The notes beneath the pieces were generated by a model. That model was given only the letters and a program-made list of their open reading frames with translations. It ran no database searches and was not told the DNA's origin. Shown here one piece after another: positions 16,318-59,848 of a DNA stretch of 64,000 nucleotides. The DNA is from Patescibacteria group bacterium. Lineage in GTDB: Bacteria; Patescibacteriota; Patescibacteriia; UBA9934; GWF2-40-263. The position numbers and the translations under genes were made by a program. The stretch's first letter is position 1, and every line of letters begins with the position of its first letter. The DNA lies in contig SCUM01000001.1 of assembly GCA_004297215.1 (NCBI GenBank), forward strand, positions 481,181 to 545,180, given 5' to 3'.

Positions 16318-16337
16318 AACGGGATTCCCGTGCGGAA

Positions 16338-17267
16338 TTATACCACATCAAGCGCCCGAGCGAGCGAAACCCATTCATCCACAGCGAGCGTCTCGGCTCG
16401 AGCCTTCGGATCGAGCCCGGCCTTCGACAGCATTTCCTTCACTTGTCCGGTCGTCCCATACCCTGCCGCGACCAGATTCCCGTGCAATTGCTTGCGCGGA
16501 TGGGAGAAACCGGCTTTCGCGAGGCGTATCACCTTCTCCCTCGGCGCGACCCCCTCATGCTCCCCCTTTCCAAGGGGGAGATAGCTCGTTTCCGCTACCC
16601 TCCCCTTGGAAAGGGGAGGCATGGCGGGGTCTGTGCGCAGGTCGAGCCTCACCACCGCCGAATCCACCTTCGGAATCGGCCGGAACGCCCCGCGGGGCAC
16701 GTTCGTCACCTTTCGGACGTCGGCGTACAGCTGACAGACGACGGACAAGAGCCCCATGTCTCCCGGCTTGGCCGTGATGCGGTCGGCCACCTCCTTCTGG
16801 ACCATGAGCACCATTCGCGACGGCCGCGGCTCGTGTGCCAAAAACCGCTCGAGGATGGGCGAGGTGATGTGGTAGGGGATGTTGGCGACGAGCTTGAAAG
16901 CTCCACCCACGACCCCCTCATGCTCCCCCTTTCCAAGGGGGAGATAGCTCGCTTCCGCTACCCTCCCCTTGGAAAGGGGAGGCATGGTGGGGTCTGTGCG
17001 CAGGTCGAACTTGAGAGCGTCGCCTTCCACGAGCGTGATGCGGTCACCGAACCGTTCACGGAGTCCCGGAATCAGGTCGTGATCCGCTTCGATGGCGGTC
17101 ACCTTGGCGCCGGCGTCGACAAGGGCCTGCGTGAGCACGCCGGTGCCGGGGCCGATTTCGAGCACGGCCTCGCCCAGGACGATCCCGGCAGCCGAAACGA
17201 TCTTCCGCAGGACGGAGGCGTCCTGGAGGAAGTTCTGTCCGAATGATTTCTTGGCGCGAGGAAGCAT
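16338..17267 (-). CDS. rsmA: 16S rRNA (adenine1518/1519-N6)-dimethyltransferase with two in-frame 32-aa insertions.
   Basis: KsgA motifs QNFL, VLEIGPGTG, NIPYHITSPI and SHPRKQL. Two extra segments DLRTDP(T/A)MPPLSKGRVAE(A/T)SYLPLGKGEHEGV have no counterpart in canonical KsgA. Confidence 0.85.
   Translation of the reverse strand: MLPRAKKSFGQNFLQDASVLRKIVSAAGIVLGEAVLEIGPGTGVLTQALVDAGAKVTAIEADHDLIPGLRERFGDRITLVEGDALKFDLRTDPTMPPLSKGRVAEASYLPLGKGEHEGVVGGAFKLVANIPYHITSPILERFLAHEPRPSRMVLMVQKEVADRITAKPGDMGLLSVVCQLYADVRKVTNVPRGAFRPIPKVDSAVVRLDLRTDPAMPPLSKGRVAETSYLPLGKGEHEGVAPREKVIRLAKAGFSHPRKQLHGNLVAAGYGTTGQVKEMLSKAGLDPKARAETLAVDEWVSLARALDVV
16548..16645. repeat. 98-bp double-hairpin palindromic element, copy A, inside the ksgA coding region.
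   Basis: gaccccctcatgcTCCCCCTTTCCAAGGGGGAGatagctcgtttccgctaCCCTCCCCTTGGAAAGGGGAGGcatggcggggtctgtgcgcaggtcga. About 97% identical to copy B. Confidence 0.8.
16911..17008. repeat. 98-bp double-hairpin palindromic element, copy B, inside the ksgA coding region (direct repeat of copy A).
   Basis: Same sequence as copy A with 3-4 substitutions. The unique flanks differ. The two copies are 363 bp apart. Confidence 0.8.
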
Positions 17268-20036: not shown

Positions 20037-21737
<1,701 letters not shown>

Positions 21738-22028
21738 TTATTCGATCACCGCCATCACGTCGTCGGCCTTGATGACGAGGTACTCGTCCTTGCCGACCTT
21801 CACCTCGTCCGGCGCGTACTTCTTGAACACCACCTTGTCGCCCGCCCTCACCTCCATGGCGGCGCGCGACCCGTTCTCGAGCAGCTTGCCGGGGCCCGCG
21901 GCGATCACTTCGCCCCGTTCCGGGCGTTCCTTGTCCACGGTGTCGGGAATGATGATGCCGGAGGCGGAAGTCTCCTCCTTGGAGGAGGCTTTCACGATGA
22001 GGTGGTCGCTGAGCGGACGGAGGTTCAT
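21738..22028 (-). CDS. groS: Co-chaperonin GroES.
   Basis: MNLRPLSDHLIVKASSKEETSASGIIIPDTVDKERPERGEVIAAGPGK…; 96 aa; its stop is 3 nt before the groEL start. Confidence 0.9.
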   Translation of the reverse strand: MNLRPLSDHLIVKASSKEETSASGIIIPDTVDKERPERGEVIAAGPGKLLENGSRAAMEVRAGDKVVFKKYAPDEVKVGKDEYLVIKADDVMAVIE

Positions 22029-22150
22029 AGGGTTTAGCAGTCGAATATTTTGAGTGCTAATGCCGGCATCTTGAAGAAAACGGGGGGGGATGTCAAGGGA
22101 TGAAAAAAGCCCTGGCGAACCAGGACTTCGTGACGGGCGCGCAGCGTGCG

Positions 22151-29317: not shown

Positions 29318-29370
29318 AGATGGCGGAAGTATACCACAAACCCCCCGTCGGCCTGACAGGGGGTTTCGGG

Positions 29371-29444
29371 TGGGCGCTGTAGGGATCGAACCTACGACCT
29401 TCTCGGTGTAAACGAGACGCTCTGACCAGCTGAGCTAAGCGCCC
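29371..29444 (-). tRNA. tRNA-Val (anticodon TAC).
   Basis: Reverse complement GGGCGCTTAGCTCAGCTGGTCAGAGCGTCTCGTTTACACCGAGAAGGTCGTAGGTTCGATCCCTACAGCGCCCA folds as a cloverleaf with anticodon loop TTTACAC. Confidence 0.85.
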
Positions 29445-29535: not shown

Positions 29536-29925
29536 ATGCTCACCAGCAGGGTCCTGAACCGAGAACCGGCCATCAACGAGAAGAACGTCCTGGAAGCCCT
29601 CAGGAACGGGGCGATGGACCGGGACAGGCTGTTCGTCCGCCTTGATGCGGCCTACCCGAACAAGAAGCCGAACAGGGACGGCATCCGCGGCGGCCGCCTC
29701 CATGACATGCTCGAACGCATGGAGCGCGGGGGACAGATCGCCGTCACGCGCGTCGAAGCCGCGGGCTACGGGTCGAAGCCGTGCGTCTTCTACTCCCTCC
29801 CGCCGGTCGTCGAGCAAAAGAACGCGACCGAGATGGACCCGTCGCCCGTCGGCATGCCGACGGCCGATGTCGCGTTCCTCCCGCCACAGGTCCCGCCGGC
29901 CCTCATGCCGTCCCACGGGACCTGA
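29536..29925 (+). CDS. Hypothetical small protein, possibly a winged-helix fold.
   Basis: 129-aa ORF between the two tRNAs; no recognisable family. Confidence 0.35.
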   Translation: MLTSRVLNREPAINEKNVLEALRNGAMDRDRLFVRLDAAYPNKKPNRDGIRGGRLHDMLERMERGGQIAVTRVEAAGYGSKPCVFYSLPPVVEQKNATEMDPSPVGMPTADVAFLPPQVPPALMPSHGT

Positions 29926-30036: not shown

Positions 30037-30122
30037 GCGGACGTGGCGGAATGGTATACGCACTAGCTTGAGGTGCTAGCGCCCGCAAGGGCTTGAGAGT
30101 TCGACTCTCTCCGTCCGCACCA
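30037..30122 (+). tRNA. tRNA-Ser (anticodon TGA), class II with a long variable arm, CCA encoded.
   Basis: GCGGACGTGGCGGAATGGTATACGCACTAGCTTGAGGTGCTAGCGCCCGCAAGGGCTTGAGAGTTCGACTCTCTCCGTCCGCACCA. Confidence 0.85.
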
Positions 30123-30154
30123 TCGACGACATCCTTGAACCGAGGAAACACGAG

Positions 30155-30186
30155 GAAAACCGACCATTCGTGGCCGGTTTTCTCGT
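30155..30186 (+). terminator. Hairpin followed by a T-rich tract after tRNA-Ser.
   Basis: aaaaccgaccattcgtggccggttttctcgtt. Confidence 0.4.
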
Positions 30187-30261
30187 TGCTGCAGGGTGCA
30201 AGGACGCGAACGTCATTTGCGACCTGTGGATAAATCACGATGGTACGTCTGGGCGGCCGCT

Positions 30262-33200
30262 TCATCTATAGACAGCGGCTGATCCCTGGTTTGCATTGCC
30301 TCCGACATCGTCGAGGTCAGCACCCACGATAAGTGTCTCCGCCGATTCTGATACCGAAACGCCAAAGTGATCGATCGTGGCGCCGTCAGCGGCGCTGAAC
30401 TTCTGGGCCTGATTCCAGGTCGATCCGGCACGGACGAATACGTACGCGGAACCCTGGTCGACGTTCGCGCCGACGGTATCTCGCTGGGCGCCAACGGCGA
30501 CGACGTCGCCCGAGATGCTCACGGAAATCCCGAAGTCAGCGTTCGTGGAGCCATCCGAGGCAACGAGCTTCTGCTGCTCGGTCCAAACAGAACCGCTGCG
30601 GACGAACACGTAGGCGCTACCCTGGTTCAGGTTGCTTCCGACGTCGTCTCGGTTCGCGCCGACGACGACCGAATTTCCGGAGATGCCGACGGAGATGCCG
30701 AAGACGTCGTTCCCGGCCGCGTCGCTCGCGACGAGCTTCTGCTGCTGATTCCAGGTCGAGCCGACGCGGAGGAAGACGTACGCCGCGCCCGGCTGCCCGC
30801 GGCCGGCGATGTCCACCCCGTCGGCGCCCGCGACGACGGAGTCACCATCGATCGCGACGGACCGGCCGAGGAAGTCCGAGGCGACGCCGTCGCTCGCGAT
30901 CAGCATCTGCTGCTGCGTCCACACCCCGCCGCTGCGCACGAACACGTACGCCGCGCCCTGCGCCGACCTGCCGGATACGGCATGGAAGAAGGACCCGACC
31001 ACGATCGTGTTGCCAGAGATCGCCACGGCGCTGCCGAACTGATCGTCCGCGGCTCCGTCGGTTGCCACGAGCTTCTGTTGCTGCGTCCACACCCCGCCGC
31101 TGCGCACGAATACGTAGGCGCTTCCTTGTCCCGTGTTGCCGTTGACGGCGTCGAAGAAGGCGCCGACGACGGCGGTGTCCCCGGAGATCGACACGGCTTG
31201 CCCAAACTGCTCGCCCGAGCCGGGCGACGTGGCACCGTCTCCGGCGACGAGCTGCTGCTGCAGGGTCCACTGCGCCCCGTTGCGGATGAAGACGGACGCG
31301 GTGCCCTGGTTCGAGCTGCCGCCGACGTCGTCGCCGGGCGCACCGACGATCGCCGTTTCACCCGAGACGCTCACCGAATGCCCGAAGGCGTCGCTTGCGG
31401 CGCCGTCCGCGGCCGTGAAGGCCTGCTGAAGTCCGGTCGGGAAGATCGGCGCCTGGACACAGCCACCTGGCGGTGAGGTCGCGGCCCCGCTCGCCCAGAA
31501 GGCGCTCCCGTCGAAGGACACCGCCAAGCCGCCCGTCCAGTCGCAGCTCACGTCGAAGCCGGTCCACCAGAAGTCGGCGGTCTGGGCGAGGTCGGCCTCG
31601 GCGACCATGTAGTGGGAGGCCGACAACACGTCGCTTGGCTCGCAGCGACGGAAGTTGAATCGCCAGGGAAGGCCGTTCGTACAGCTGGCGCACTCGTTCG
31701 GGAACGGCGCGTCTCCGACAGGCAGGTCGGGGAGCAGGTACTCGACCCAGCCGTCTCCGTCGCTGTCGTCCACCGGGATCTCCTGCCCGCTCTCTGCGAT
31801 CCCTTGCGCCCATCCGATGACGCATAGGTCGCTTCCCGCGACGAGGTTCGAGAGCGCCGTGCCGTCGTGGAGCTGAAACGCGCTCGGGTCGAGGAGCACC
31901 ACGCGGCTGTCGAGCGAATCGAGGCGCAATGGGGGAAGCGGCAGGCACGTGCCCGCCAGGCATTCCTCGTTGTACGCGCATGAGCCGCATGAGCCCCCGC
32001 ACCCGTCGGAACCGCACGTGCCCGCACACTGCGGCGTGCATGTGTCGACCATGAAGGAGCAAGACGATCCAAGCCCTGGCGACTCCGTCGGGTCATCGAC
32101 GAGCGTGATCGGTCGCTCGTCGCTGTCGAGCACCACGAGCTCCGCGGCGCAGGCCGAAACGTCGGCCGGCGTCGGACAGAACCAGGCGTCGCTCGACGCG
32201 ACGGTCGCTCGAAGGTCGAAGCGCAAACCTTCGCCCTGAGGCGGCGTGAGCAGGCATGCGTCCTGCGACCCGCTCGTCGAGCACATCGAGACCCACGGAC
32301 CGACGGGCTGTCCGGTGGCGAGGTCGAAACGCTGCGCGAGCAGCTCGAGGCCCGTGACGGAGGGCCCGAGGCAGCGGTAGATGGCGTAGACGTCTCCGCC
32401 GGCGATGTCGCAGTAGTCGAGGTTCGCCCAGCAGTCCGGATCCTGGCAGTCGATCCACCCGTCGCCGTCGTCGTCGACCGCGTCGAAGCAGGATTCCGCG
32501 CAGACGCCCTCGTCCACGAGCGCGTCGCAGTCGTTGTCGATCGTGTCGCAGCGCTCCAGGGCGCCCGGGTTGACCAGCGGATCGCCGTCCCCGCAGTCGC
32601 CGGCGGCGCACGCCGCGCCGTCGAGCCGCGTCATCGTGAGGTCGCAGTACCCATCCCCGTCGCTGTCGCAGAACTCGTCGACGTTCCCGTCGCAGTCGTT
32701 GTCCTGGCCGTCGCACACCTCGCTCGACTCGATGCACGGGCCGACGCAGCCCGGCTCGCCGACGAACAAGCAGCAGCGACGCTGCGCGGGGTGGCAGCCG
32801 ACGTCGCCGCAGTACGTGAGCTGAAAGTCGTTCCACTGGCACTGGCCGTCGAAGCAGCCGCCGGGCTCGTACACCTTGAGCTGGGTTTCGCCGTAGCACT
32901 CGGAGGGAGGGATGGTGTCGCAGGCGTCGGGCTCCCCGCAGGGGTCGCCGCAGTTGTCACTGCCGCAGATGGCGTTGCGGGCGGCGCAGTCGGACACGCA
33001 GTCGGGAACGCACACGGCGGTCGTAGAGCTGGTATTCTCGCAGTGCTCGCCGAAGCCACACGGTGGCGGAAAGATGTAGAGCCCTTCCCCGTTCTCGTCG
33101 AGTACCCAAGGGTGAACGGTGTCGCCTGGGTTCGGCGCCCAGCACTGCACGACGTCGGGCGTCGTGCAGATGGGGACACCAGCGCAGTCAGGATCGGCGC

Positions 33201-35226
33201 AGCCGATGAGGCCGTCGGCATCTTCGTCGGTCTGGGCGCCAGTGCACTGCTGGTCGACCGCAGGACACCCATCGACACAATCCTCCGGGGACGATGAGCA
33301 GTCCTCGGTCACCGTGGAGCAGACTCCATCGCCTCGGACGGGGCCGAAAGGTGGGTTGGAGCAGAGCGCGAGCACCTGTTGGCAATCGGCGCTCGACGCG
33401 AGCGTGGCGCAGTCGCTCGTGCTCTGATTCTGGGGGTTCGCATACAGATGAATGCGGACGCGTCCGTCGAACCCCGGCAGACTCCTCGTGGCTTCCCACC
33501 ACATGAAACCGCGCGAGAAGTACTGGCATGGATGGCTCGAAGGACAGAGCGGCTGGGACGCTGGCGCGCTCGGCGCCAGCTTGCGTTCGTCCGCGTCGCT
33601 ACCAGCGATATGCTCCTCGGACTCGGGAGCACCGAGCTTCGTCGGGCCGCCGGTCGGGTCGTCGTCAACCGGATCTTCCCCGTCGGCCATCAAGCACTTG
33701 AACGCGCCCCAGAACCCGCACCTTATCTGATGAACCGCGGTCTTGTTGTCGCGAAGGATGAGCGCACTGTCACGCGATCCCGGGCAGAGATCGTTGGGTG
33801 CGATGAAATCCTGGATCCAGACGCGTGGAGTGCCGGACTCGGGCCAGGGATGAACGGGATCGAGCGCGTCGCCGAGCTCCGCCGGACGGTCGATCCCGTC
33901 GACATCCCGACCTTCGATGTATCGCTCGACGAACGCGTATGAGTCGACATCGACGATGCCGTCTTGATCGAACGGTCGCCAGACTGCGGCGGTGGAACTT
34001 GTGCCTTCGAGCTGAACCCATCCAGGCCCGCATCGATCGCAGTAGGGATACTCATGCGCGGTAACCGCGTTGCCGTCCCACAGGAGGAAGCCGCGGTGGA
34101 AGTCTTGACGAGCGCCGTTCTCGAAGGAGTACTCGTCGGTGATCGGCAGGCCGAGCGTTTCCTCGGGGTTCTCTCCGAATGCGCACTGCGGCCCAGAGCC
34201 GGAGCAGGAACGGTAGAACTCACCGAATCCAAGTTTCAGGATTACTGCGCGATGTGCACCACCGAGGGCGTCGAAAACGATATCAACGCTGCCATTCAGC
34301 AGATCGGGCGCAGCGCCGTGATCGAACCTGTAGAAGTTCCTTGCCACACCACTCGGTCCGAACGAAGAAGCCACCACAGGCACCGCACTAGATCGAGCCC
34401 ATGCTTCATAGGGGTGGGCCCACGTTGCTGGGACCAGGGTCGTCCCCGTGAGTGAAACACCGAGCCTGACGACGGCGTCACGCATCTTCGCGTCGTTCCA
34501 TGACCTCAACCGCTGTGCTCGGTTGATGCAGCCCTCATCGACGCCGATGGGCTCAACAAGCTCCGCGCTGCCGTCCGCGTTGGTGTCGGCGCTGAGTTCG
34601 ACACCAAGATACTCCGAGCAGATCTGAGTATCCTTCTGGTGATCGAAATGAAGATGTGGCGCGAAACAGTCGTCGTAAGAAAGAGCGCCCGGACGACAAT
34701 CACAATCTGCTAGACGGCCTGCACCGCCAAGGTATCCGACAACATCCCCTGCCGCAAGCAGGTTCCCCTTGCGAACTTCAACGGAGGACATGTGGGCAAA
34801 TCGCGCGTACGTCCCTCCGTCGCCACAGCTATCGACATCCTCGTTCCCGTATCTAACCACTACGATCCGGCCATAACAACTCGACGCCTTCTCCGCACGA
34901 CAAACAACACCGTCCTGTGGCGTTACGATGGGAATCCCTTCATCATTATAGCCTTCAAACGACGTGCAAGCTGACGCCGAGACGTTGGGGTAGGTAGCCG
35001 CGTATCGTACCCAATCGATCCAGTTGAGATCCCAGGCGGCCTCATGTGCATGACTTGTTCCGCCACACCATCCGCGAGCCAACCACACCGCCTCGCCGCC
35101 GATAATCGGCATCGCAGCGTCGAGCGAGTCGCTCGCACACCCGTCATCACGATCAGGGCAGGGTGTGGCCAGTATCCTTGTGGCGACAGACACCACGGAA
35201 AGAAACACGATAGTCTGCTGTTTCAT
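30262..35226 (-). CDS. Giant secreted multidomain protein (1654 aa): M23-like N-terminal region, Cys-rich CxxDxDCDG repeats, and C-terminal FG-GAP beta-propeller repeats.
   Basis: Signal MKQQTIVFLSVVSVATRILA. HLHFDHQKD follows GDVVGYLGGAG (M23-like HxH). CDGQDNDCDGNVDE and CDTIDNDCDALVDEG are Myxococcus-type Cys-rich repeats. At least seven repeats of FGxSVxISGxTxVVGA…GSAYVF (FG-GAP). Confidence 0.8.
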   Translation of the reverse strand: MKQQTIVFLSVVSVATRILATPCPDRDDGCASDSLDAAMPIIGGEAVWLARGWCGGTSHAHEAAWDLNWIDWVRYAATYPNVSASACTSFEGYNDEGIPIVTPQDGVVCRAEKASSCYGRIVVVRYGNEDVDSCGDGGTYARFAHMSSVEVRKGNLLAAGDVVGYLGGAGRLADCDCRPGALSYDDCFAPHLHFDHQKDTQICSEYLGVELSADTNADGSAELVEPIGVDEGCINRAQRLRSWNDAKMRDAVVRLGVSLTGTTLVPATWAHPYEAWARSSAVPVVASSFGPSGVARNFYRFDHGAAPDLLNGSVDIVFDALGGAHRAVILKLGFGEFYRSCSGSGPQCAFGENPEETLGLPITDEYSFENGARQDFHRGFLLWDGNAVTAHEYPYCDRCGPGWVQLEGTSSTAAVWRPFDQDGIVDVDSYAFVERYIEGRDVDGIDRPAELGDALDPVHPWPESGTPRVWIQDFIAPNDLCPGSRDSALILRDNKTAVHQIRCGFWGAFKCLMADGEDPVDDDPTGGPTKLGAPESEEHIAGSDADERKLAPSAPASQPLCPSSHPCQYFSRGFMWWEATRSLPGFDGRVRIHLYANPQNQSTSDCATLASSADCQQVLALCSNPPFGPVRGDGVCSTVTEDCSSSPEDCVDGCPAVDQQCTGAQTDEDADGLIGCADPDCAGVPICTTPDVVQCWAPNPGDTVHPWVLDENGEGLYIFPPPCGFGEHCENTSSTTAVCVPDCVSDCAARNAICGSDNCGDPCGEPDACDTIPPSECYGETQLKVYEPGGCFDGQCQWNDFQLTYCGDVGCHPAQRRCCLFVGEPGCVGPCIESSEVCDGQDNDCDGNVDEFCDSDGDGYCDLTMTRLDGAACAAGDCGDGDPLVNPGALERCDTIDNDCDALVDEGVCAESCFDAVDDDGDGWIDCQDPDCWANLDYCDIAGGDVYAIYRCLGPSVTGLELLAQRFDLATGQPVGPWVSMCSTSGSQDACLLTPPQGEGLRFDLRATVASSDAWFCPTPADVSACAAELVVLDSDERPITLVDDPTESPGLGSSCSFMVDTCTPQCAGTCGSDGCGGSCGSCAYNEECLAGTCLPLPPLRLDSLDSRVVLLDPSAFQLHDGTALSNLVAGSDLCVIGWAQGIAESGQEIPVDDSDGDGWVEYLLPDLPVGDAPFPNECASCTNGLPWRFNFRRCEPSDVLSASHYMVAEADLAQTADFWWTGFDVSCDWTGGLAVSFDGSAFWASGAATSPPGGCVQAPIFPTGLQQAFTAADGAASDAFGHSVSVSGETAIVGAPGDDVGGSSNQGTASVFIRNGAQWTLQQQLVAGDGATSPGSGEQFGQAVSISGDTAVVGAFFDAVNGNTGQGSAYVFVRSGGVWTQQQKLVATDGAADDQFGSAVAISGNTIVVGSFFHAVSGRSAQGAAYVFVRSGGVWTQQQMLIASDGVASDFLGRSVAIDGDSVVAGADGVDIAGRGQPGAAYVFLRVGSTWNQQQKLVASDAAGNDVFGISVGISGNSVVVGANRDDVGSNLNQGSAYVFVRSGSVWTEQQKLVASDGSTNADFGISVSISGDVVAVGAQRDTVGANVDQGSAYVFVRAGSTWNQAQKFSAADGATIDHFGVSVSESAETLIVGADLDDVGGNANQGSAAVYR

Positions 35227-35814
35227 TTATCTCTCGATCTCGAGGCTATCGACGATTCCATCACAGGCATCCGAAATTGGTTGCGCTTGGGCATCAGCCA
35301 CCAGTTCCGAGCGGACTGTGTTTGAGACCTCAATAACTGTCCGCGGATCAATGACAACGAATCTTTGCGCTAGAACCATGACGTTCTCGGTCTCCACTAG
35401 ACGTCTAAATGCGACATTGCCTCGCAATGTAGTGAAGGTGTTCTCGTCTCCTACGCCCGCGGGAAGGTCTCCATCGTCACGCAGAGAATTCGCGAACTCC
35501 TTCAGGTCCTCGTCCGTTCGTATTGCGAAGGGACTCTCGTACAGCTTCATCGCGCACAAGAGCTCATTCCACCGAGCGGTGTTCCCATCTGGGGAGGCGT
35601 GCCATACGTTGCTAATGGGTTCACGGACGCTCCAGCCGAGTGGTGTCGTGAAGCGGGCTGTAACTGCGCCACCGAGTGAGATTCTCTCAACCCCATCCGG
35701 GAGCGGCTGCACGGGCTCGTCGGTGCATCCAGCGCCTGCGAGTGCCACGACGAGCAGAGCTAGTGCGAGAGCCTTTGCGAGGTGTCGTCGATGTCCTGGT
35801 GTTTCGGTCGGCAT
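35227..35814 (-). CDS. Lipoprotein, translationally coupled to the giant gene (its stop abuts the giant ATG).
   Basis: MPTETPGHRRHLAKALALALLVVALAGAGCTDEP: signal plus lipobox Cys. 195 aa. Confidence 0.55.
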   Translation of the reverse strand: MPTETPGHRRHLAKALALALLVVALAGAGCTDEPVQPLPDGVERISLGGAVTARFTTPLGWSVREPISNVWHASPDGNTARWNELLCAMKLYESPFAIRTDEDLKEFANSLRDDGDLPAGVGDENTFTTLRGNVAFRRLVETENVMVLAQRFVVIDPRTVIEVSNTVRSELVADAQAQPISDACDGIVDSLEIER

Positions 35815-36060
35815 AGTGCTGGTACCCTCGGTCAAGCCGTCGGGCGATGATAGCGCGGTCAGCGGATCCGCGTGGAGGCGCACCGACTTGCGTCCCGACT
35901 GCGCCGCCCAATTGATGAGGCGCAGTCCACAAGTCGGTGACGCTCGCACCCTCATGGTGCCCGACGTCGCCACTGCCGTCCAGACTACGGCGCCGTTGCA
36001 TCTATGTGGCGAAGTTGGCAAGGCTTCCCGACGGCGCCCTGGCGCCCTTGGAGGCAGCGC

Positions 36061-36978
36061 ATGCGCATCGACGAGGCGGCGCGGCTTTTCGTGGCCCACG
36101 TCCGGGATGAACGCCGATTCTCCCCGGCCACGGTAGTCAGCTATCGAGCCGAGCTACACCTGCTCGGCGTGTTCGCCGTGACTCGCGCCGTCGCCGATGT
36201 CGAGGGCGTCACGCACGTCCTGCTCGTCGAGTACCTCGGCTCCGGGGAGCCGCCCGTCGCCCCCTCGACCCGCAACCGCAAGCTCACGGTGCTGCGCAGC
36301 TTCTTCGCCTTCCTGGTGGATCAGAGGCTCGTCGCGGCGTCCCCCGCCCAGGACGTCCCCTTCGCCCGCGCCCCTCGGCGCGACGAGCCGAGCCTCTCGG
36401 CTCGCGACGTGGGCAAGCTCCTCGCCGTCCTCGCCAAGGAGGTCAGCTGGCGGGGCGTCCGTGACAGCTGCATCGTCCTCCTGCTCTTCCACACCGGGCT
36501 CCGGCTCTCGGAGATGCTCTCCCTCGACGTGGGCCAGGTCGACCTTGGCAACGCCCTCCTGCGCGAGGTGCGGCGCAAGGGAGGGCGCGAGCAGCCGCTT
36601 CCGCTCAACGCCGACGCCCTCTCGGCGCTCAAAGCGTGGCTGGAAGCCCGCAAGGGGCTTGTAATCGAGGGAGACGCCCTGTTCGTCTCACGCCTGGGCG
36701 GACGGCTGTCCAAGCGCGCCGTGCAAGGCCGGGTGAAGGAGGTCGGAGAGGCCGCAGGGGTCCCGTCCCTGCACCCCCACCTTCTGCGCCATAGCTTCGC
36801 CACCGAGGTGCTGGCCGCCGGTGGGAACCTCGAGGAGGTCCGGCGCCTGCTCGGGCACGCGAGCATCACGACGACGAGCCGGTACAGCCACCCGAGCGAC
36901 GAGGCGCTCCGGCGCGCCGTGGACCGCCTCTCGACCCCACCCAGCCCGCCCAGGCGTCCTCCGCGGGGAGCGCGATGA
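36061..36978 (+). CDS. Tyrosine recombinase (XerC/XerD-like, phage-integrase family).
   Basis: Catalytic R…HxxR…Y residues: LLFHTGLRLSEM, LLRHSFAT, LLGHASITTTSRYSH. Confidence 0.8.
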   Translation: MRIDEAARLFVAHVRDERRFSPATVVSYRAELHLLGVFAVTRAVADVEGVTHVLLVEYLGSGEPPVAPSTRNRKLTVLRSFFAFLVDQRLVAASPAQDVPFARAPRRDEPSLSARDVGKLLAVLAKEVSWRGVRDSCIVLLLFHTGLRLSEMLSLDVGQVDLGNALLREVRRKGGREQPLPLNADALSALKAWLEARKGLVIEGDALFVSRLGGRLSKRAVQGRVKEVGEAAGVPSLHPHLLRHSFATEVLAAGGNLEEVRRLLGHASITTTSRYSHPSDEALRRAVDRLSTPPSPPRRPPRGAR

Positions 36979-37127: not shown

Positions 37128-37892
37128 ATGAAGACACGCCATCGGATCGTTCAGGTTCTCGTCGCTGCGGCGACGCTCGTGGTGCTCGTGGCGTGCGGGA
37201 CCATCAAGACCACGCGCGATCGGTACGCGGTCGTCCCGTACGACGAGAAGGAGTTCCGCCAGGAGAAGGACGGCCTCATCGTCGAGTTCAAGCCGGTGGA
37301 TACCTACCCGCCCGAGCTCATCGTGAACCTCGCCTCGTGCTCCGAGACGTACCAGCAGCAGATGCAGCGCCAGAAGACCGGCGGGGAGGCGCCGCGCGAA
37401 GACGTGCTCATCCTCGATCCCCGTCGCGGCGAGTACTTCTCGCGCGTGACGGTCACCAACACGAGCGACCACGTCGTGCGCATGACCACCGGCGTCTTCA
37501 AGCTCTTCGACCCGGCGAACAACGCCAACGACGCCATGACCAAGGACGACATCGTCGCGTCCATCGAAGGGGCGCGCTCATGCGCCAACACCGCCGAGGC
37601 GACGGCCAAGGCGCGCAACATCAAGCTGTTCGACCGCGCCGTGGAGTTGGTGCCCAACAGCAGCTTCTCGGGCTGGATCGTGTTCAAGGTCGCGCCCGAG
37701 ATCATGTCGACGCCGGGCACATGGAAGGTCGCGCTGTATGAGCTGCCCATCGCCGTCGACGACGCCGGCAAGGTCACGAAGACGACTCGCTTCGAGATCC
37801 GCTCCATCTCGAAGAAGTTCGTCGACCGTTACGAGCAGGCCAACATGTTCGCCGCGCCACAGCTCGTCGGCACCGACGAGGTGACGCAATGA
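37128..37892 (+). CDS. Lipoprotein.
   Basis: RBS aggagg precedes the start. MKTRHRIVQVLVAAATLVVLVACG lipobox. Confidence 0.6.
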   Translation: MKTRHRIVQVLVAAATLVVLVACGTIKTTRDRYAVVPYDEKEFRQEKDGLIVEFKPVDTYPPELIVNLASCSETYQQQMQRQKTGGEAPREDVLILDPRRGEYFSRVTVTNTSDHVVRMTTGVFKLFDPANNANDAMTKDDIVASIEGARSCANTAEATAKARNIKLFDRAVELVPNSSFSGWIVFKVAPEIMSTPGTWKVALYELPIAVDDAGKVTKTTRFEIRSISKKFVDRYEQANMFAAPQLVGTDEVTQ

Positions 37893-38464
37893 GGCCGGCG
37901 ACCGAGCGGGCCACGCTCGCGTTCGCCCTTTGTGCACTGAGTGCGTGCGTCCCGACGCCGTCAAGCGGTGAGGGTGAAGGCGAGGGCGAGGGTGAAGGCG
38001 GGACTGGCGGAACAGGCCTGGCCCTTGGAGTAATCTGCATCAGTGCTGGCGGCGACGAGATCTGCCAGAATCAGGATGAGCTCATCGACCCAAGCATCAG
38101 CCGTTCCTCCGGTGGAGGGAACGTGTCGCTCTCCATCGAATTTGGCGACCCGTTCGATGGGCCCCTCAGCGCAGGCAGCTATGTATCGGGTCTGTATATC
38201 CTCGGCATTCCCGACGATGCTGAGGTGCCGTATGAATTCTTTGAGATTGGAAACGATGCACAGTGGTCAGTGTCGTGTGGTGCGTTGGCAACGAACAACC
38301 ACAACAATAACCCAGAAGATGGACATATATATTCATATTCATCATCATCGTTTGAAGGTGATTTTCATATGACTGAAAATGGATATGATCCATTTTCAGG
38401 ATCACTCGACGGGTGTCCGACTGTTGCGCCCGATCTGTCTGTTCGGTTCAATCTCATTCCGTAA
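37889..38464 (+). CDS. Lipoprotein with a poly(Gly-Glu) linker and a low-GC C-terminal patch.
   Basis: Lipobox ALCALSAC. Linker SSGEGEGEGEGEGG. ATGA overlap with the upstream gene. 38280-38400 is about 33% GC. Confidence 0.6.
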   Translation: MRPATERATLAFALCALSACVPTPSSGEGEGEGEGEGGTGGTGLALGVICISAGGDEICQNQDELIDPSISRSSGGGNVSLSIEFGDPFDGPLSAGSYVSGLYILGIPDDAEVPYEFFEIGNDAQWSVSCGALATNNHNNNPEDGHIYSYSSSSFEGDFHMTENGYDPFSGSLDGCPTVAPDLSVRFNLIP

Positions 38465-40380: not shown

Positions 40381-41220
40381 TCAGAACAAAGGCTGCTGAT
40401 CGTCGTCGACGGCCGACGTGTGCCAGACGGGGCCGAGGAGCTTCGCCGGCTCCTTGATGTCCGCGGCCTCGGCGAGGAGTGCGAACCAGAACAGGCGGGA
40501 GGTCGCTCCAGGGAGCGCGGCGCGCGCCGCCGCCCGAAGGCGATCGAGCCTGGGCTTCGTCGTCGTGAGGGTCAGCACCCGGTGCGATGCGCATCCCCCG
40601 AAGGCGAGCGCCCGCGTTCGCCTGGAGCGCCAGTACGCGGCGTATCGGTCGGCCATCCTCTTGGGCGCCACCGTCCCCATGTCAATCTCGACGTCGAACG
40701 CGTGGGCTTGCCCGCCGTGCTGGAGCGTGACGGAGGCGTCGGGGACGACGCGGACGCGACTGGCGTTCCAGCCCTCGCTCGGGGCACGGAACTCGACCTC
40801 CTCGGGAACCTGCTTCCAGCAGAGGAGTCCCACGTCGCGCGCGAGGTCGCGGTCGAGCGTCGTGAGCGCGAGGCGGAGGTCGTTGCGGCGCAGCGTATGG
40901 TCGAGGAACAGGCCGCTGCGCCGCTCGGACTCGGACACCGTCCGGCGCTCCGCCTCGGGACGCGTCTGCTCGAGGGCGCGGGATCCCTTCCTCGAGAGCG
41001 CCCACACCGTGCAGCTGCGCCGGTCGTATGGCCGCACCGGCATGAACACCTTGGTGACGAGCGACGAGGCGTGCAGGCGACGCAACCGCGCGGACGCGGC
41101 CTCCTCGGTCGGGAACCAGAGCGTCGCGAGCTGCGGCGTGGTCGCGAAGCGGCATGCGCCCAGCGTCGAGAGCACGTCGAGGTCGCGTTCGGTCGTGAGC
41201 AGCGTGATGGGCTTGCTCAT
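40381..41220 (-). CDS. Replication-relaxation family protein (Replic_Relax).
   Basis: MSKPITLLTTERDLDVLSTLGACRFATTPQLATLWF…, 279 aa. The ORF-track N-terminal extension is an out-of-frame shadow. Confidence 0.6.
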   Translation of the reverse strand: MSKPITLLTTERDLDVLSTLGACRFATTPQLATLWFPTEEAASARLRRLHASSLVTKVFMPVRPYDRRSCTVWALSRKGSRALEQTRPEAERRTVSESERRSGLFLDHTLRRNDLRLALTTLDRDLARDVGLLCWKQVPEEVEFRAPSEGWNASRVRVVPDASVTLQHGGQAHAFDVEIDMGTVAPKRMADRYAAYWRSRRTRALAFGGCASHRVLTLTTTKPRLDRLRAAARAALPGATSRLFWFALLAEAADIKEPAKLLGPVWHTSAVDDDQQPLF

Positions 41221-41780
41221 ACGGGGAGGTTGGATTCGAGCCGGGCAAGCACCTGCTCTTCGAGGACGAGGACGCCGCAGAGCACGGCGAGGAACAGGCG
41301 CGAGTGGTACCGGTCCTTCCCGTTGCGCTCGCGGCTGCCGGCCTCTTCGTCGAGGCGCGAGGCGAGCTCCGGGAACAGCTCGATGGCCGCGTGCGCCACG
41401 GCGAGGTTCGTCGCGAGCCCGGCCTTGGCGCGCACCATGGCCTTCGCGCGGACGTGCTGCGCGAGGCGCTTCTCGATGGCGATGCCGCGCCGGCCCGCCT
41501 CGCTCTCGATGAGTGCCAGTTGGGCGTCCATGGTCGCGTTCGTGTCCTTGGGCTTCTGGGTGACGACGGCGATCGTGGTGACCCGTCCCTCGTCGAGGAT
41601 CTCCCCGATCTGGGCGCCGAACTTTTGCTCGCGTCCCGACGCCGACGGGAGCTTGCGGACGTTCAGGACGAACTGGTCGAGGAGCCGCTCCGAGGTGACG
41701 AGAGCGAAGCCTACTTCCCGGCCGCTGGGTGCGATTGCCAGGCAAGTGGGCGTGCATGGCACGCGGCGCACGGGCCTCAT
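41217..41780 (-). CDS. Hypothetical protein.
   Basis: Coherent from MRPVRRVPCTPTCLAIAPSGREVGFALVTSERLLDQ… ATGA overlaps on both sides. Confidence 0.35.
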   Translation of the reverse strand: MRPVRRVPCTPTCLAIAPSGREVGFALVTSERLLDQFVLNVRKLPSASGREQKFGAQIGEILDEGRVTTIAVVTQKPKDTNATMDAQLALIESEAGRRGIAIEKRLAQHVRAKAMVRAKAGLATNLAVAHAAIELFPELASRLDEEAGSRERNGKDRYHSRLFLAVLCGVLVLEEQVLARLESNLPV

Positions 41781-42139
41781 ACCGAGAGGCCGCCCTCCTC
41801 GTCGTACAGCACCTCCTCGAACGCGGCGGTGAGGTCGTGCAGCACCACGAGCGGCGCCATATGGAACGAGCAGACGGGTGTGAGCGCGTCCTCGACGAGC
41901 GCACCGGCAGCAGCGTCGACGGCGATGAGCACCACGCGGTTGGGCCATCGGGCCTCCAGCATGCCGGTGACGGCCTGGGCAAGACGCTCGATCGACGGCT
42001 GGTCACGCGGCGCGACGACGAGGAACACCTTGCCGCCGGCTGCGGAACTCCGGGAGAAGATGACGCGTTCTGCCGTGACAGCGATGACGAGGTCGACCTC
42101 CTCGCCTGTCGCGGTCGCCGGTGATGTCGTGGGTTTCAT
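41777..42139 (-). CDS. Hypothetical protein.
   Basis: MKPTTSPATATGEEVDLVIAVTAERVIFSRS…; first gene of the minus-strand operon. Confidence 0.3.
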   Translation of the reverse strand: MKPTTSPATATGEEVDLVIAVTAERVIFSRSSAAGGKVFLVVAPRDQPSIERLAQAVTGMLEARWPNRVVLIAVDAAAGALVEDALTPVCSFHMAPLVVLHDLTAAFEEVLYDEEGGLSV

Positions 42140-43649: not shown

Positions 43650-45010
43650 CGGTACGATGTCGGACAGGTCGACCCGAACCTCGGTGAGCGGGTAGCCTTG
43701 CATGGCCGTGACGATGGCACGTCGCACCGGCGCCATCGATCGGACGCCCGATCGATGCTTGCCACTGCGGCCCGTCGTATGCGGCGCCATGAAGAACCGC
43801 GCCCGCAAGAACGACAAGTCCGTGACCACGACCCAAGTCCACCAGTTCGTGCAGGGGATCCTCGAGGAGGATTTGCACGCTCGACGCGTCCTGTCGCTCG
43901 CGAACGCCGTGACCGGCGCCGTCCATGCGGCGGCGCTCTCGATCCACGCGATCGGTGCGGCGCTCGCGGCGGCGTCGGACCTCAACAAGAAGCACGCGGT
44001 CAAGCAGGTCGACCGCATGCTGAGCAACGCCGGGATCGCCATCGAGGAGCTCTTCCCTGTGTGGGTCGCGTTCGTGCTCGGAGTGCGCAAGAAGATTCGC
44101 ATCGCGCTCGACTGGACCGACTTCGAAAAGGACGACCAGGTCACGCTGGCGGCGTATCTGATCACGGAACACCACCGCGCGACGCCGCTGGTCTGGAAGA
44201 CCTACGCGAAGTCGACCCTCCGTGGAAACCAGTCGGACTACGAAGCGGAGTTCATCGACCTGCTGGACCGCGTGATTCCCGAAAGAGCCGAGGTCACGAT
44301 CGTCGCTGACCGCGGCTTCGCCAGCGTCGAGCGCTACGGCCACCTCGACTTCCTGGGCTTCAAGTACGTCATCCGATTTCGCGGAGAGATCCAGGTGACG
44401 GACGCGGAAGGGACCACGCAGACCGGGAACCAGTGGGTGCCGCCCAAGGGGCGGGTGCGCCGAATCGAGGATGCGCGCGTGACGGCGGCCAAGGGCGTCG
44501 TGCCCGTCGTCATCTGCGTGAAGAAGGCGAAGATGAAGGACTCGTGGTGCTTGGCGACGAACCATGCGGAGCTGACGAGCGCCGAGATCATCAACTTGTA
44601 CGGCCGGCGGTTCACGATCGAGGAGACGTTCCGCGACGTGAAGGACCAGCGCTTCGGCATGGGGCTCAGGGCGACGTCGATTCGCCAGCCCGAACGACGT
44701 GATCGCTTGTTGTTCGTCGCGGCGCTCGCGCACGCGCTTCTCAGCCTGCTCGGCGCGGCTGGGGAACGGCTGGGCCTCGACCGGATGTTGAAGGTGAACA
44801 CGTCGAAGACGCGACAGCTCTCGCTCTATCGCCAGGGGCTCTTTTGGTATCAGGCGCTGCCGAACATGCGGGAGGAGCGCTTTGCCGCACTGATGACCGC
44901 CTATTCCGAGATTATTCAGGAGCATGCCGTCATGCGGAGAGTGTTCGGTGTTCTGTGATGGAAACGAGGGGATGGTTCAGCTCGTGGCGAGAACTCTCAG
45001 TGACGCAGGC
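43650..45010 (+). mobile_element. IS4-family insertion sequence; ends approximate, terminal inverted repeats not resolved.
   Basis: A single transposase ORF that interrupts the element's gene array. Confidence 0.45.
43702..44958 (+). CDS. IS4-family DDE transposase.
   Basis: DDE triad contexts IALDWTDF, VADRGFAS, YGRRFTIEETFRDVK. 418 aa. Confidence 0.75.
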   Translation: MAVTMARRTGAIDRTPDRCLPLRPVVCGAMKNRARKNDKSVTTTQVHQFVQGILEEDLHARRVLSLANAVTGAVHAAALSIHAIGAALAAASDLNKKHAVKQVDRMLSNAGIAIEELFPVWVAFVLGVRKKIRIALDWTDFEKDDQVTLAAYLITEHHRATPLVWKTYAKSTLRGNQSDYEAEFIDLLDRVIPERAEVTIVADRGFASVERYGHLDFLGFKYVIRFRGEIQVTDAEGTTQTGNQWVPPKGRVRRIEDARVTAAKGVVPVVICVKKAKMKDSWCLATNHAELTSAEIINLYGRRFTIEETFRDVKDQRFGMGLRATSIRQPERRDRLLFVAALAHALLSLLGAAGERLGLDRMLKVNTSKTRQLSLYRQGLFWYQALPNMREERFAALMTAYSEIIQEHAVMRRVFGVL

Positions 45011-48549: not shown

Positions 48550-49001
48550 AGAACGCGCTCGTCGTCATCAGCAGCCTCATGGTCGCTGCGGCAATCGGCC
48601 TGCCGCTCGGCCAGCCCATGCGCCTGGTGGCACTCATGGCAGTGGTCGGGGGCGCGTTCGCCTTGGTCGTCAGCGCGAAGGAATGGAGCGGCAAGCTCTT
48701 CGCCGTCGGCATCGGCCTTGCCGTCTTCGGCACGTTCTGGGACGGGCTGTCGTTCCAGCTCCACCAGCTGGCCATGCTGGCGCTGCACGATCCGTCGGTG
48801 GTCGTCGTGCTCGTCATCATGGCTCTCGCCGCGCTCGCGCTCCTGCTCGCCAAGGCGTGGGCGCGTGGCACGCACGCCAAGGCGTCGACTCCGCGGGCCC
48901 GCGAGCGCGCGCGCCTCGTCGAACCGCACGACGGCCCTAGCCGGATTCCGTCAGCGAGCGCGCCTGACGATCTCGGGCTGTTCGGACCGCGGCATGACTG
49001 A
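48546..49001 (+). CDS. Small polytopic membrane protein.
   Basis: GTG start overlaps the upstream stop (GTGA). 4 TM helices. Confidence 0.45.
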   Translation: MKNALVVISSLMVAAAIGLPLGQPMRLVALMAVVGGAFALVVSAKEWSGKLFAVGIGLAVFGTFWDGLSFQLHQLAMLALHDPSVVVVLVIMALAALALLLAKAWARGTHAKASTPRARERARLVEPHDGPSRIPSASAPDDLGLFGPRHD

Positions 49002-50409
49002 CGACCTCGTCCCCATCGGGTTCTCCTTCGACGGGGGGCCGTTCGTCCTCCCCATCGAGCGGGTGCTGCGCCACGCGCTGGTGACGGGCGCGACTGGCGC
49101 AGGGAAGACCGCCTTCGTCGTCGGCGCCGTGCTCTCGATCGCCAAGCGGTCGCCCTCGACCAGGTTCGTGCTCGTCGACCCCAAGGGAGAGCTGCTCGAC
49201 ACCATGCGGACGTTCGTGGGCGCCCTCGGGGAGCGGCCACCCTTCCTCGCCCGCCAGCTCCTGGTGATCGACCCGTTCGCTGCGGGGATGACGACGCCCA
49301 TGAACCTGCTCGCGCCGGAGCCGGGGCTCGAGCGCTCGGTGCAGGCGAACGTGATCGTCTCCTCGCTCTGCGAGCTGTTCGACGGCGGGTTCGGCCCGCG
49401 CATGATGTCGGCGCTCACGACCTGCGTGCGCGCCGCCATCGAGGCCGGTGGCACCTTGCTCGACGTGCTCGAGCTGCTGCGCCGCCCCGCATACGGGGCA
49501 CGCCTTGCCTCGCTCATCGCGGATGCGGAGGTGCGCCGCGCGGTCGTCGAGGACTTTCCGGAAGAGGCGGAGGCGACGCGGGCAGCGTTGCGTGCCCGAC
49601 TCGAATGGCTGGTGTCGTCCAGGCCGCTGCGCGCCTGCCTGTGCGCCAAGGACGCCGCCACTGGCACCCAGATGCTCGAGCACGGCCTCACGCTGGTCTC
49701 CCTCGGCCCGCCAAGCGGGATGGGCGCCGCCGGAAAGGCGATGGCGGCGCTCATCATGGCCAAGATCTCGGCGGCGGTCTTCATGCGGGCGGTCGACCAG
49801 GCCGCAGACGTCCTCGTCGTCATCGACGAGGCGCCCGAGGTGCTGCGGCGCAGCGCCGCCGACGAGATGGAGCGCCTGCTCTCGATGGCCCGCTTCAAGC
49901 GAGTGGCCGTCTGGTCCCTTGCCCAGGGCATGCAGCAGGTCTCATCGTCGTCGGTGACCCTCGCGCGCTCGCTCGCGACCAACGCCTCGCTGCGAGCGTG
50001 CTTCCGCGGTTCGTCCCAGGACGTCGCCGACATCGCCCATGCCCTGCCGGTCACGGGCAGGATGCGCGACCCGCATCAAAGAGACCGGCTGCTGTCGGTC
50101 GCGCAAGAGCGTGCGCTTCTCGTCGAGCGTACCGTCTCGCTACCGCCCCGCTGCGCGCTGTTCGTCGAGGCCGGCGTCGGCGCGACCCTCCTGCGCACGC
50201 CGACGCTCCCGTTCGAGGAAGCGCGCGAACGGTTCGAGGCGCTGCCGGCGGCGGAGCGGGAGCGCGTGCGGTACGGGAGCAACTCCGTTCAAGTCGACGA
50301 GCTGCTGCGCACGGCAAAGCTCGCCGCATTGTCGGTCACCACGGCCACTGCGAGAGGTGCTCGGCCGGCAGCATCGACGAAGCACCGTCCGCGCCTGGTG
50401 CTGCCATGA
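48994..50409 (+). CDS. P-loop NTPase of the TraD/VirD4/HerA-FtsK-like superfamily (candidate DNA-transfer ATPase).
   Basis: Walker A VTGATGAGKTAFVV, Walker B VLVVIDEAPEVL, arginine-finger region. 471 aa. Overlaps the upstream gene. Confidence 0.6.
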   Translation: MTDDLVPIGFSFDGGPFVLPIERVLRHALVTGATGAGKTAFVVGAVLSIAKRSPSTRFVLVDPKGELLDTMRTFVGALGERPPFLARQLLVIDPFAAGMTTPMNLLAPEPGLERSVQANVIVSSLCELFDGGFGPRMMSALTTCVRAAIEAGGTLLDVLELLRRPAYGARLASLIADAEVRRAVVEDFPEEAEATRAALRARLEWLVSSRPLRACLCAKDAATGTQMLEHGLTLVSLGPPSGMGAAGKAMAALIMAKISAAVFMRAVDQAADVLVVIDEAPEVLRRSAADEMERLLSMARFKRVAVWSLAQGMQQVSSSSVTLARSLATNASLRACFRGSSQDVADIAHALPVTGRMRDPHQRDRLLSVAQERALLVERTVSLPPRCALFVEAGVGATLLRTPTLPFEEARERFEALPAAERERVRYGSNSVQVDELLRTAKLAALSVTTATARGARPAASTKHRPRLVLP

Positions 50410-55186: not shown

Positions 55187-55440
55187 AGAAGGCTCCCATG
55201 TAGGAGAAGGTATCACCCGGAGCCTTGGTTTGGCGAGCTGACCCCCTAGATCAGATCTGAAGTCAAGTGCTTTCCTCACATTTCGGGGACTTGCGTGGGC
55301 GACCGCCGCGCAGGGACAGCCAGCCATGTGTCAGGCTGGCAGCAAGGGGCCGCAGGCATCGTCGACAAACGCCACCGCGCGCTGGCTGAGCAGCGGTGCG
55401 AGGCGCCCACTATACTGGCGAGGTCAACGACGAGGTTTCG

Positions 55441-59736: not shown

Positions 59737-59812
59737 AGTGCGCGCTCGTGGGGAAGCATCGTGACTGGACGATGCCGCCCCGCCCCTCAAGGAATCTCCC
59801 TTGATGAGCACC

Positions 59813-59845: not shown

Positions 59846-59848
59846 GTG

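Follow-up and report, generated by a model that had tools for sequence, protein, structure and literature searches.

Why does a member of the Patescibacteria carry, beside a tRNA gene, a small lipoprotein gene joined head to tail with a 5-kb gene, and on whose cell wall would the products act? The pair lies in a 64,000-nt stretch of contig SCUM01000001.1 (hereafter the window), and the genome belongs to Candidatus Uhrbacteria (Patescibacteria). An interpretation made from the letters of the window (the sequence-only reading) had described the large product as a peptidase fused to an integrin-like propeller and had proposed an acquired island. We find that the pair sits at one end of a 29.7-kb insertion carrying mobile-element genes, and that the N-terminal part of the large protein belongs to a family whose members almost always have a gene for a small membrane-anchored protein upstream. 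We put at about one half the probability that the pair is a surface or secreted peptidoglycan endopeptidase-adhesin operon, carried as island cargo, with a foreign wall as its inferred target and the lipoprotein as its partner.

The interval that had been flagged consists of two co-directional minus-strand genes, an open reading frame (ORF) for a 195-aa lipoprotein followed by an ORF for a 1654-aa protein. The pair has the structure of an operon. As had been noticed, the TAA of the lipoprotein gene directly abuts the ATG of the large gene; our scan found no terminator-like site between the two. The same two genes are called at NCBI, on an 842-kb contig, as hypothetical proteins of 'Patescibacteria group bacterium'. 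Judged from its sequence and a structure model, the large product runs from a signal peptide through an M23 endopeptidase, LGFP-type wall-binding repeats and a disulfide-rich acidic stalk to a seven-bladed propeller. The two genes and the parts of the large product are the following.

35227-35814, minus strand: lipoprotein gene, 195 aa (NCBI EPO34_02610)
30262-35226, minus strand: large gene, for a secreted multidomain protein of 1654 aa (ORF and translation; exact match to NCBI EPO34_02605)
35167-35226, minus strand: signal peptide, about aa 1-20, MKQQTIVFLSVVSVATRILA (inferred from sequence; in the model a helix at aa 2-16, then a disordered linker)
34612-35109, minus strand: M23 zinc endopeptidase domain, about aa 40-205 (Pfam PF01551, conserved residues, Foldseek)
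33427-34509, minus strand: LGFP-type repeat region, about aa 240-600, putatively wall-binding (weak Pfam match, family matches, fold)
31447-33426, minus strand: Cys-rich acidic region, about aa 601-1260 (Pfam MopE; motif and cysteine counts)
30265-31428, minus strand: seven FG-GAP_2 repeats, about aa 1267-1654 (Pfam PF14312, E 1.6e-102, seven stretches)

The domains named in the sequence-only reading were all recovered by hidden Markov models (Peptidase_M23, MopE and FG-GAP_2). The M23-like region with its HxH motif matches Peptidase_M23 (PF01551) over aa 96-200 with 37.6 bits, against a gathering score of 28.7. In the family alignment, H59, D66, H145, H191 and H193 make up the full zinc and catalytic set, with H191 and H193 forming an HLH motif. 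D66, H145, H191 and H193 are invariant in a trimmed alignment of 14 rows, most of which also keep H59, and D66, H145 and H193 are at least 90% conserved in 37-sequence alignments. An AlphaFold model of aa 1-625, built on the family alignment, reached a mean predicted local distance difference test score (pLDDT) of 73.6 and a predicted template-modelling score (pTM) of 0.80. With the first domain of this model, Foldseek retrieved LytM, LasA, lysostaphin, EnpA, ShyA and others (probability 1.00, E 1e-5 to 1e-3). Further structural neighbours of the M23 part are DipM, EnvC and Csd1/2, and the best match of all is the cyanophage A4 pre-ejectosome protein. From its residues and modelled fold, the M23 domain is expected to cleave cross-links in peptidoglycan.

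An LGFP-type domain, which follows the M23 domain and precedes the Cys-rich region, had gone unnoticed. Its match to LGFP (PF08310) at aa 358-391 is sub-threshold (18.8 bits against a gathering score of 22). The fold of aa 240-600 resembles the C-terminal LGFP domain of Corynebacterium glutamicum mycoloyltransferase A (6sx4/6swz; Foldseek E 3e-4 to 5e-4, 247-358 columns, template-modelling score 0.43 normalised by target), and the motif LG.P...E...Q.F..G..W is common to the two. The domain in the window is attached to a peptidase, and its host has no mycolate envelope.

The protein contains 84 cysteines and is strongly acidic (231 D+E against 80 K+R). Most of the cysteines (61 of the 84) fall within aa 601-1260, together with two CxxDNDCD repeats (aa 838-934) and five DxDxDG motifs. 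The CxxDNDCDG repeats had been compared with those of Myxococcus, and Cu-binding_MopE does match them (E 8e-11; CDGQDNDCD at aa 838 and CDTIDNDCD at aa 893), while an NCBIfam acidic double-disulfide repeat matches the region below its cut-off. By its motifs, the region is presumed to be a stalk stabilised by disulfides and Ca. For the C-terminus, where at least seven FG-GAP repeats had been expected, FG-GAP_2 occurs in seven stretches that are predicted to form a seven-bladed beta-propeller; the coding DNA shows a 168-nt periodicity with five copies. Bacterial FG-GAP/integrin-alpha-like surface proteins have seven PF14312 repeats as well, but the remainder of the window protein is not shared with them. 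No full-length relative of the 1654-aa protein was found among 5.8 billion sequences: the propeller alone aligns (23% of the query), and it is 33-47% identical to propellers in other large secreted proteins.

The N-terminal part recurs elsewhere. An exhaustive HMMER search with aa 1-625 returned 65 proteins; in many, the alignment spans about aa 35 to about aa 410 and occupies the same N-terminal position. We aligned 37 members, of which 33 have Peptidase_M23, 10 have LGFP (E<=0.001) and 12 end in a type IX secretion sorting domain. Their C-termini carry FG-GAP_3 in seven cases and FG-GAP in four, and others carry CBM_4_9, PKD, FlgD_ig, Laminin_G or CHAP. By this comparison of sequences, what unites the family is the M23+LGFP N-terminal module, while the C-termini vary. 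The fusion of a peptidase to a propeller had been called unusual, but these seven and four members show that it recurs, and an unrelated 2788-aa protein also joins PF14312 and PF01551.

A gene for a small membrane-anchored protein almost always stands upstream of the M23+LGFP gene. In 9 of 10 family contexts (the window and eight of the nine others) the gene directly upstream on the same strand encodes a membrane-anchored protein of about 200-240 aa. The eight are L082, L083 (296 aa as called), L085, L088, L090, L091, L092 and L093; in the ninth, L086, the anchored partner is not present. We collected 24 further loci from JGI metagenomes with a degenerate DNA motif scan for IVYDALGGAR, and in about 22 of them the upstream ORF is a homologue of the PsbP-like partners. 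PsbP_2 (PF18933) matches three of nine upstream proteins at E<=1, the window lipoprotein being among the nine scanned.

The 195-aa product of the window begins MPTETPGHRRHLAKALALALLVVALAGAG-C, a signal peptide with a lipobox-like LAGAGC. The lipobox stretch reads KALALALLVVALAGAG-C, which we take to fit the PROSITE lipobox rule. The protein has no Pfam or NCBIfam match. Next to the two closest homologues of the large protein, P0013 and P0014 (N-terminal module 38-40% identical to that of the window), lie upstream lipoproteins that align with the window lipoprotein, with 17 invariant columns that include a C-terminal cysteine. We rejected as unproven the homology of the window lipoprotein with the PsbP-like partners, with which it has position, size and membrane anchoring alone in common. 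In five loci on metagenome contigs (L100, L103, L113, L114 and L117), two or three short M23-LGFP genes of about 300 aa stand in tandem, with PsbP-like partner genes interleaved, so that the pair forms arrays.

How did the pair come to stand beside a tRNA gene? We compared the window with 80 loci, almost all from Candidatus Uhrbacteria, that were obtained with a NusA-based scan of GTDB species genomes. The best NusA relative is RIFCSPHIGHO2_01_FULL_63_20 (L001; 84% NusA identity). One side of the window is syntenic throughout, with g29069, (methyltransferase), UPF0102, NusA, YidC, Wzy and GroEL, and in the relatives the tRNA-Leu/tRNA-Val pair adjoins this NusA cluster. In L001, tRNA-Leu is followed by a DAGK-like kinase gene (50 nt away), a bactofilin gene and a GAF histidine kinase gene, whose counterparts in the window are at 59849-62390. 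The order bactofilin, DAGK, tRNA-Leu/tRNA-Val, NusA cluster is found in 43 of the 80 loci, with DAGK within a few kb of the tRNA pair and in many directly adjacent. Because DAGK adjoins tRNA-Leu in L001 and lies close to the tRNA pair in these relatives, we take about 29.7 kb to be inserted in the window. The features that define the site are these.

29369-29444: tRNA-Val(TAC)
30037-30122, plus strand: tRNA-Leu(GAG) (ARAGORN; Rfam RF00005, 55.7 bits)
30155-30182: 12-pair hairpin separating the 3' end of tRNA-Leu from the large-gene stop (terminator scan and sequence)
30123 to about 59820: the insertion, about 29.7 kb long, reaching from the 3' end of tRNA-Leu towards DAGK, with its right edge somewhere in 59737-59848
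59849-60604, minus strand: DAGK-like kinase gene (Pfam DAGK_cat; 84% identity with its orthologue in L001), with which the conserved chromosomal genes resume past the island

The gene pair is not core: the N-terminal module, the propeller, the lipoprotein and the Xer-like gene were found in none of the 80 Uhrbacteria loci syntenic on the NusA side. The proposal of an acquired island thus stands, on the comparison with the empty site and on the mobile genes described below, but the island is about five times larger than the interval flagged. The adjoining tRNA gene needed correction. It had been taken for tRNA-Ser, with the lipoprotein gene directly after it; ARAGORN and Rfam identify it as tRNA-Leu(GAG), and it lies on the opposite strand beyond the 3' end of the large gene, 140 nt past the stop. 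The hairpin in between is, from its sequence, likely a bidirectional terminator.

The two tRNA genes vary in order and orientation across the loci (L001-L080), with inserts of 0-8 kb between or beside them (for example in L017, L008, L010 and L064). In the window the promoter-plus-tRNA-Leu unit is inverted relative to L001, and in another of the Uhrbacteria loci (L048) a homologous serine recombinase gene lies about 200 nt from tRNA-Leu. The tRNA-Leu/tRNA-Val site is a lineage-wide rearrangement and integration hotspot. One further locus, L081, shares 4450 nt with the window at 100% identity and is not independent evidence. Between tRNA-Val and tRNA-Leu in the window lies a 129-aa ORF (29536-29925, plus strand) with no family match, which is kept solely in the closest relative, L001, at the same place (45% identity).

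The inserted region contains the following mobile-element genes, along with YggL-like and HIT genes.

36004-36978, plus strand: Xer-like tyrosine recombinase (Phage_integrase and Phage_int_SAM_1), divergent from the gene pair
40381-42006, minus strand: first Replic_Relax (MobC-type relaxase) gene (PF13814, E 3e-24)
43702-44958, plus strand: DDE transposase (DDE_Tnp_1, E 4e-16)
48718-50409, plus strand: ATPase of the FtsK/TrwB superfamily, coupling-protein-like (FtsK_SpoIIIE, 24.9 bits)
50666-51667, plus strand: second Replic_Relax (MobC-type relaxase) gene, directly after the ATPase gene (PF13814, E 1e-11)
52474-53673, plus strand: tyrosine integrase (Phage_integrase, E 2e-28, and Phage_int_SAM_3)
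58270-59736, plus strand: large serine recombinase, placed at the island's right end (Resolvase, Recombinase, Zn_ribbon_recom)

A tyrosine recombinase gene had been noted beside the pair, and it is there, but it is Xer-like and one of three site-specific recombinase genes in the island; its scores of 200 bits for XerC and 178 bits for XerD are below the equivalog cut-offs of TIGR02224 and TIGR02225 (335 and 330). The ATPase is 24% identical over 325 aa (E 1e-18) to a TrwB/TraG-type protein encoded beside the family member in L085, and has weak PDB matches to FtsK and TrwB. The serine recombinase gene ends 112 nt from DAGK, and its product is homologous to recombinases encoded beside family members in L090 (E 2e-57) and L093 (E 3e-42). 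Integrase and relaxase genes occupy one inserted block, as in integrative mobilizable elements, and the presence of two relaxases, three recombinases and one transposase suggests that two or more elements have been combined.

The Pfam family PF13814 is equivalent to MobC relaxases (PMC5357655). In Patescibacteria, MobC is the commonest relaxase class, and 39 relaxase genes lie beside orphan coupling-protein genes (PMC12102498). The class 8 integrative mobilizable elements of streptococci combine a VirD4-type coupling protein, a MobC relaxase and a serine integrase (PMC5357655), and the right half of the island is similarly built: an ATPase gene, a PF13814 relaxase gene directly behind it and, where the element ends, a gene for a large serine recombinase. 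It differs from class 8 in its Patescibacterium host, in its composite make-up, which includes another relaxase, two tyrosine recombinases and a transposase, and in that its ATPase is only weakly VirD4-like. A 15-nt sequence, GAGGTCGACCTCGTC, with a 12-nt palindrome, occurs at 42087-42101 and at 50587-50601, in each case upstream of a PF13814 gene by about 65-95 nt. This sequence is a candidate origin of transfer (oriT) or operator, and hints at two related mobilisation modules in the island.

Base composition separates the lipoprotein gene and the first 500 codons of the large gene from most of the island. The window has 65% GC, and its ordinary genes have a GC content at third codon positions (GC3) of 0.77-0.93. 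The lipoprotein gene has a GC of 0.57 and a GC3 of 0.59, and codons 1-500 of the large gene have a GC of 0.56-0.62 and a GC3 of 0.51-0.70; after codon 500 the values are 0.64-0.71 and 0.77-0.96. The lower GC of the lipoprotein gene and of the 5' third of the large gene, which the sequence-only reading had reported, is thus real in GC and GC3 plots, although its figures of 54% and 65% are only approximate. The GC3 dip spans exactly the lipoprotein gene and the family-conserved N-terminal module, and most genes in the rest of the island have a host-like GC3 of 0.82-0.91. The low-GC patch is a sub-mosaic in a host-like, high-GC3 island and not a signature of the island itself, and this cassette looks to have been exchanged more recently than the island backbone.

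A second dip lies outside the island. The groEL gene (20037-21734, minus strand), with the adjacent 21737-22047, has a GC of 0.51 and a GC3 of 0.54, while neighbouring core genes have a GC3 of 0.77-0.93. The syntenic groEL of the closest relative is 74% identical at the aa level and has a GC3 of 0.90, and the copy in the window looks like an in-place replacement from a lower-GC relative. We also considered high expression as the source of the GC3 dip and do not favour it: groEL, equally low in GC3 here, is normal (0.90) in the closest relative, so that low GC3 in the window more likely reflects imported DNA. Two further low-GC3 ORFs in the island have no family match (37889-38464, GC3 0.56, and 54128-55327, GC3 0.69); a homologue of the latter, with 27% identity, is encoded downstream of groEL in L026.

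We propose that the two genes would act as one operon, cargo at the tRNA-Leu-proximal end of the integrated mobile-element region. The signal peptide would export the large product, whose N-terminal M23 domain would cleave peptidoglycan cross-links while the LGFP-type repeats hold the enzyme on a cell wall. The acidic disulfide-rich region may be a stiff spacer giving reach, and the seven-bladed FG-GAP propeller a ligand-binding head. The lipoprotein, probably translationally coupled, would be a membrane-anchored partner at the producer's membrane, where it may retain or dock the enzyme, restrain it, or protect the producer's own wall. The target would be the wall of a touched cell (host, competitor or DNA-transfer partner) and not the producer's own division. 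In diderm bacteria, a type IX sorting domain directs export past the outer membrane. A foreign wall is favoured by such sorting tails in one third of the relatives (12 of 37), by C-terminal binding domains that are swapped freely, by the accessory and compositionally mosaic nature of the window copy, and by the report that wall-degrading enzymes, homologues of peptidase and lysozyme, are essential for the epibiotic growth of a Saccharibacterium (PMC12102498).

Close known counterparts are the secreted bacteriolytic M23 peptidases lysostaphin, zoocin A, LasA, beta-lytic protease and EnpA, in which, as in the window protein, an M23 H/D/H zinc site with catalytic histidines is fused to a wall-targeting domain. 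Enzymes of the lysostaphin type are exported against the peptidoglycan of other cells and are often encoded on mobile DNA. The window protein, in contrast, is six to ten times larger, has LGFP-type repeats and not SH3b, and adds the Cys-rich stalk and the propeller. It also departs from this type in its first zinc motif, H-x6-D, and in having a partner lipoprotein and not a FemABX-type immunity enzyme, and its activity is predicted.

Several observations weigh against our interpretation. The Pfam M23 match begins at profile position 12, and the first zinc motif is not the textbook HxxxD, so that this ligand is assigned by alignment alone. For the lipoprotein, a leave-one-out profile of the PsbP_2-like partners scored 2.9 bits against a shuffle maximum of 2.5, and hhalign aligned it to the PsbP-like partners over 15 columns ('f.f..P..W.v' motif) with 19% probability. 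Its structure model, built from 30 database homologues, is unusable (pLDDT 55, pTM 0.29). Many metagenome members lie amid genes for DnaA, DnaN, tRNA synthetases, YidC and transglycosylase, which fits ordinary wall remodelling too. Finally, searches for attachment (att) site repeats gave nothing significant, and any competence for excision is hypothetical. One weak match is an inverted one of 15/16 at both island edges (30126-30141 and 59719-59734, ACGACATCCT[T/C]GAACC, E ~0.4), with one copy 4 nt after the tRNA-Leu 3' end and the other at the very end of the serine recombinase gene, a placement that is notable even though the match by itself lacks significance; another weak repeat of the tRNA 3' end (17/19) occurs at 52290. 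Serine recombinases need almost no repeat.

Could the pair instead serve the transfer of the element that carries it? It would then be a VirB1-like wall hydrolase and adhesin, opening the wall and keeping donor and recipient in contact while DNA is transferred by conjugation or mobilisation. In 5 of the first 10 contexts (the window, L083, L085, L090 and L093), a large serine recombinase and/or a TrwB/DUF87-type ATPase is encoded in the same element. In the four loci other than the window these genes are within 10 kb of the pair, and in L085 and L090 the recombinase gene is directly adjacent; the window has greater distances, about 13 kb to the ATPase gene and about 23 kb to that for the serine recombinase. 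Moreover, the serine recombinase, ATPase and relaxase of the window are homologous to neighbours of other family members. Conjugation in monoderms needs wall hydrolases, and no adhesins have been identified for Patescibacteria's type IV secretion system (PMC12102498). VirB1-like hydrolases such as PrgK, TraG of pIP501 and CwlT are likewise multidomain peptidoglycan hydrolases on mobile elements, and some VirB1 homologues of Patescibacteria carry Peptidase_M23 (PMC12102498). The window protein, however, has no transglycosylase or CHAP domain and no adjoining virB4; it has an N-terminal signal peptide and a separate anchored partner, and many members of its family are found off mobile elements.

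The wider sampling speaks against a role in transfer. None of the 24 further loci matched the recombinase, ATPase or relaxase seeds, and their flanks are housekeeping genes, so we downgraded the idea that the pair is a backbone function of serine-recombinase/coupling-protein elements. The pair is a widespread two-gene module that is sometimes on mobile elements and also occurs in core chromosomal contexts. Furthermore, the scan of genes in the window turned up neither VirB4 nor any other channel gene, and the low-GC cassette looks like swapped cargo in a high-GC backbone. We found no family members in IMG/VR, PLSDB or INPHARED (tblastn on PLSDB and INPHARED gave generic M23 matches or nothing). 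A role in the element's own transfer is an unlikely explanation.

Some of the contexts on elements contain defense and regulatory genes: LexA-like repressors in L090 and L093, and, in L093, genes of a cyclic-oligonucleotide-based anti-phage signaling system (CBASS) and of type I restriction. The L093/L094 element, integrated in a genome of candidate division KSB1 (GCA_003576975.1), holds a 1757-aa family member with its partner, a DUF87/TrwB ATPase, type I restriction, a LexA-like repressor, a patatin+SMODS (CBASS) pair and a large serine recombinase.

The pair may also be an ordinary autolysin for the producer's own wall, needed for growth, division or insertion of a pilus or secretion machine, with the lipoprotein as a membrane regulator and the place in an island incidental. 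M23 enzymes commonly do such work, and ShyA, DipM, EnvC and Csd1/2 are among the structural neighbours. Many members with a conserved upstream partner are found amid core genes (DnaA, DnaN, transglycosylase), and the Corynebacterium LGFP domain is established to anchor its protein to the cell's own wall (6sx4/6swz). However, the gene is missing at the syntenic place in all 80 relatives and sits in inserted DNA, and about 1000 aa of stalk and propeller would be superfluous for self-remodelling. The type IX sorting tails of 12 of the 37 relatives put the enzyme outside the cell envelope, and the C-terminal domains are highly variable. We regard an autolysin as doubtful.

It is very improbable that we are dealing with a prophage whose giant product would be a tail fibre, an ejection protein or a virion-associated lysin: the cyanophage match of the M23 part, the LexA/CI-like repressor, SSB, RuvC-like and primase-helicase genes of related contexts and a weak match of the island ATPase to a PHROG terminase family point that way, but a scan of 10 island proteins against PHROGs yielded no capsid, portal or tail family and no terminase beyond that weak match, the MobC-type relaxases and the coupling-protein-like ATPase point to mobilisation, and family members are absent from IMG/VR and INPHARED.

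The window contains another giant protein, a 3167-aa ORF (6124-15627, minus strand) with a single Pfam match, CBM_4_9. Beside it lies a 237-aa ORF (15634-16347, minus strand) with TSP3/MtsD-like traces. We considered a kinship between the two giant proteins and rejected it, as they show no similarity; the two modules are unrelated.

The individual domains and the type of island are of known kinds. In the literature searched, three things appear to be undescribed: an M23-LGFP family with an obligate upstream membrane partner and swappable heads, the presence of this family on a Patescibacterium's MobC/serine-recombinase element, and the hotspot that Uhrbacteria have at tRNA-Leu/tRNA-Val.

Patescibacteria rely on other cells, and few of the molecules with which they hold and breach the wall of a partner have been described. 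A survey linked no adhesins and few wall hydrolases to the type IV secretion genes of Patescibacteria, and reported thousands of orphan coupling-protein genes (PMC12102498). The locus described here provides a concrete candidate, a predicted wall-binding M23 endopeptidase with a long stalk, a propeller head and a membrane-protein partner, and indicates that a pair of this kind can be carried by a probable integrative mobilizable element, here at a tRNA hotspot of Uhrbacteria. As a more speculative extension, which we hold to be rather unlikely, the pair might be a hitherto undescribed contact device by which ultra-small Patescibacteria and some other uncultivated bacteria attach to a partner cell and breach its wall at that spot. 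The dock or a safety catch would be the anchored protein, and mobilizable elements like the one in the window would move alternative heads between strains, shifting the range of hosts or partners. If the protein is an ordinary autolysin, the finding shrinks to a well-documented genomic island in a candidate phylum. If its target is a foreign wall, the variable C-termini of the family are candidate determinants of host range.

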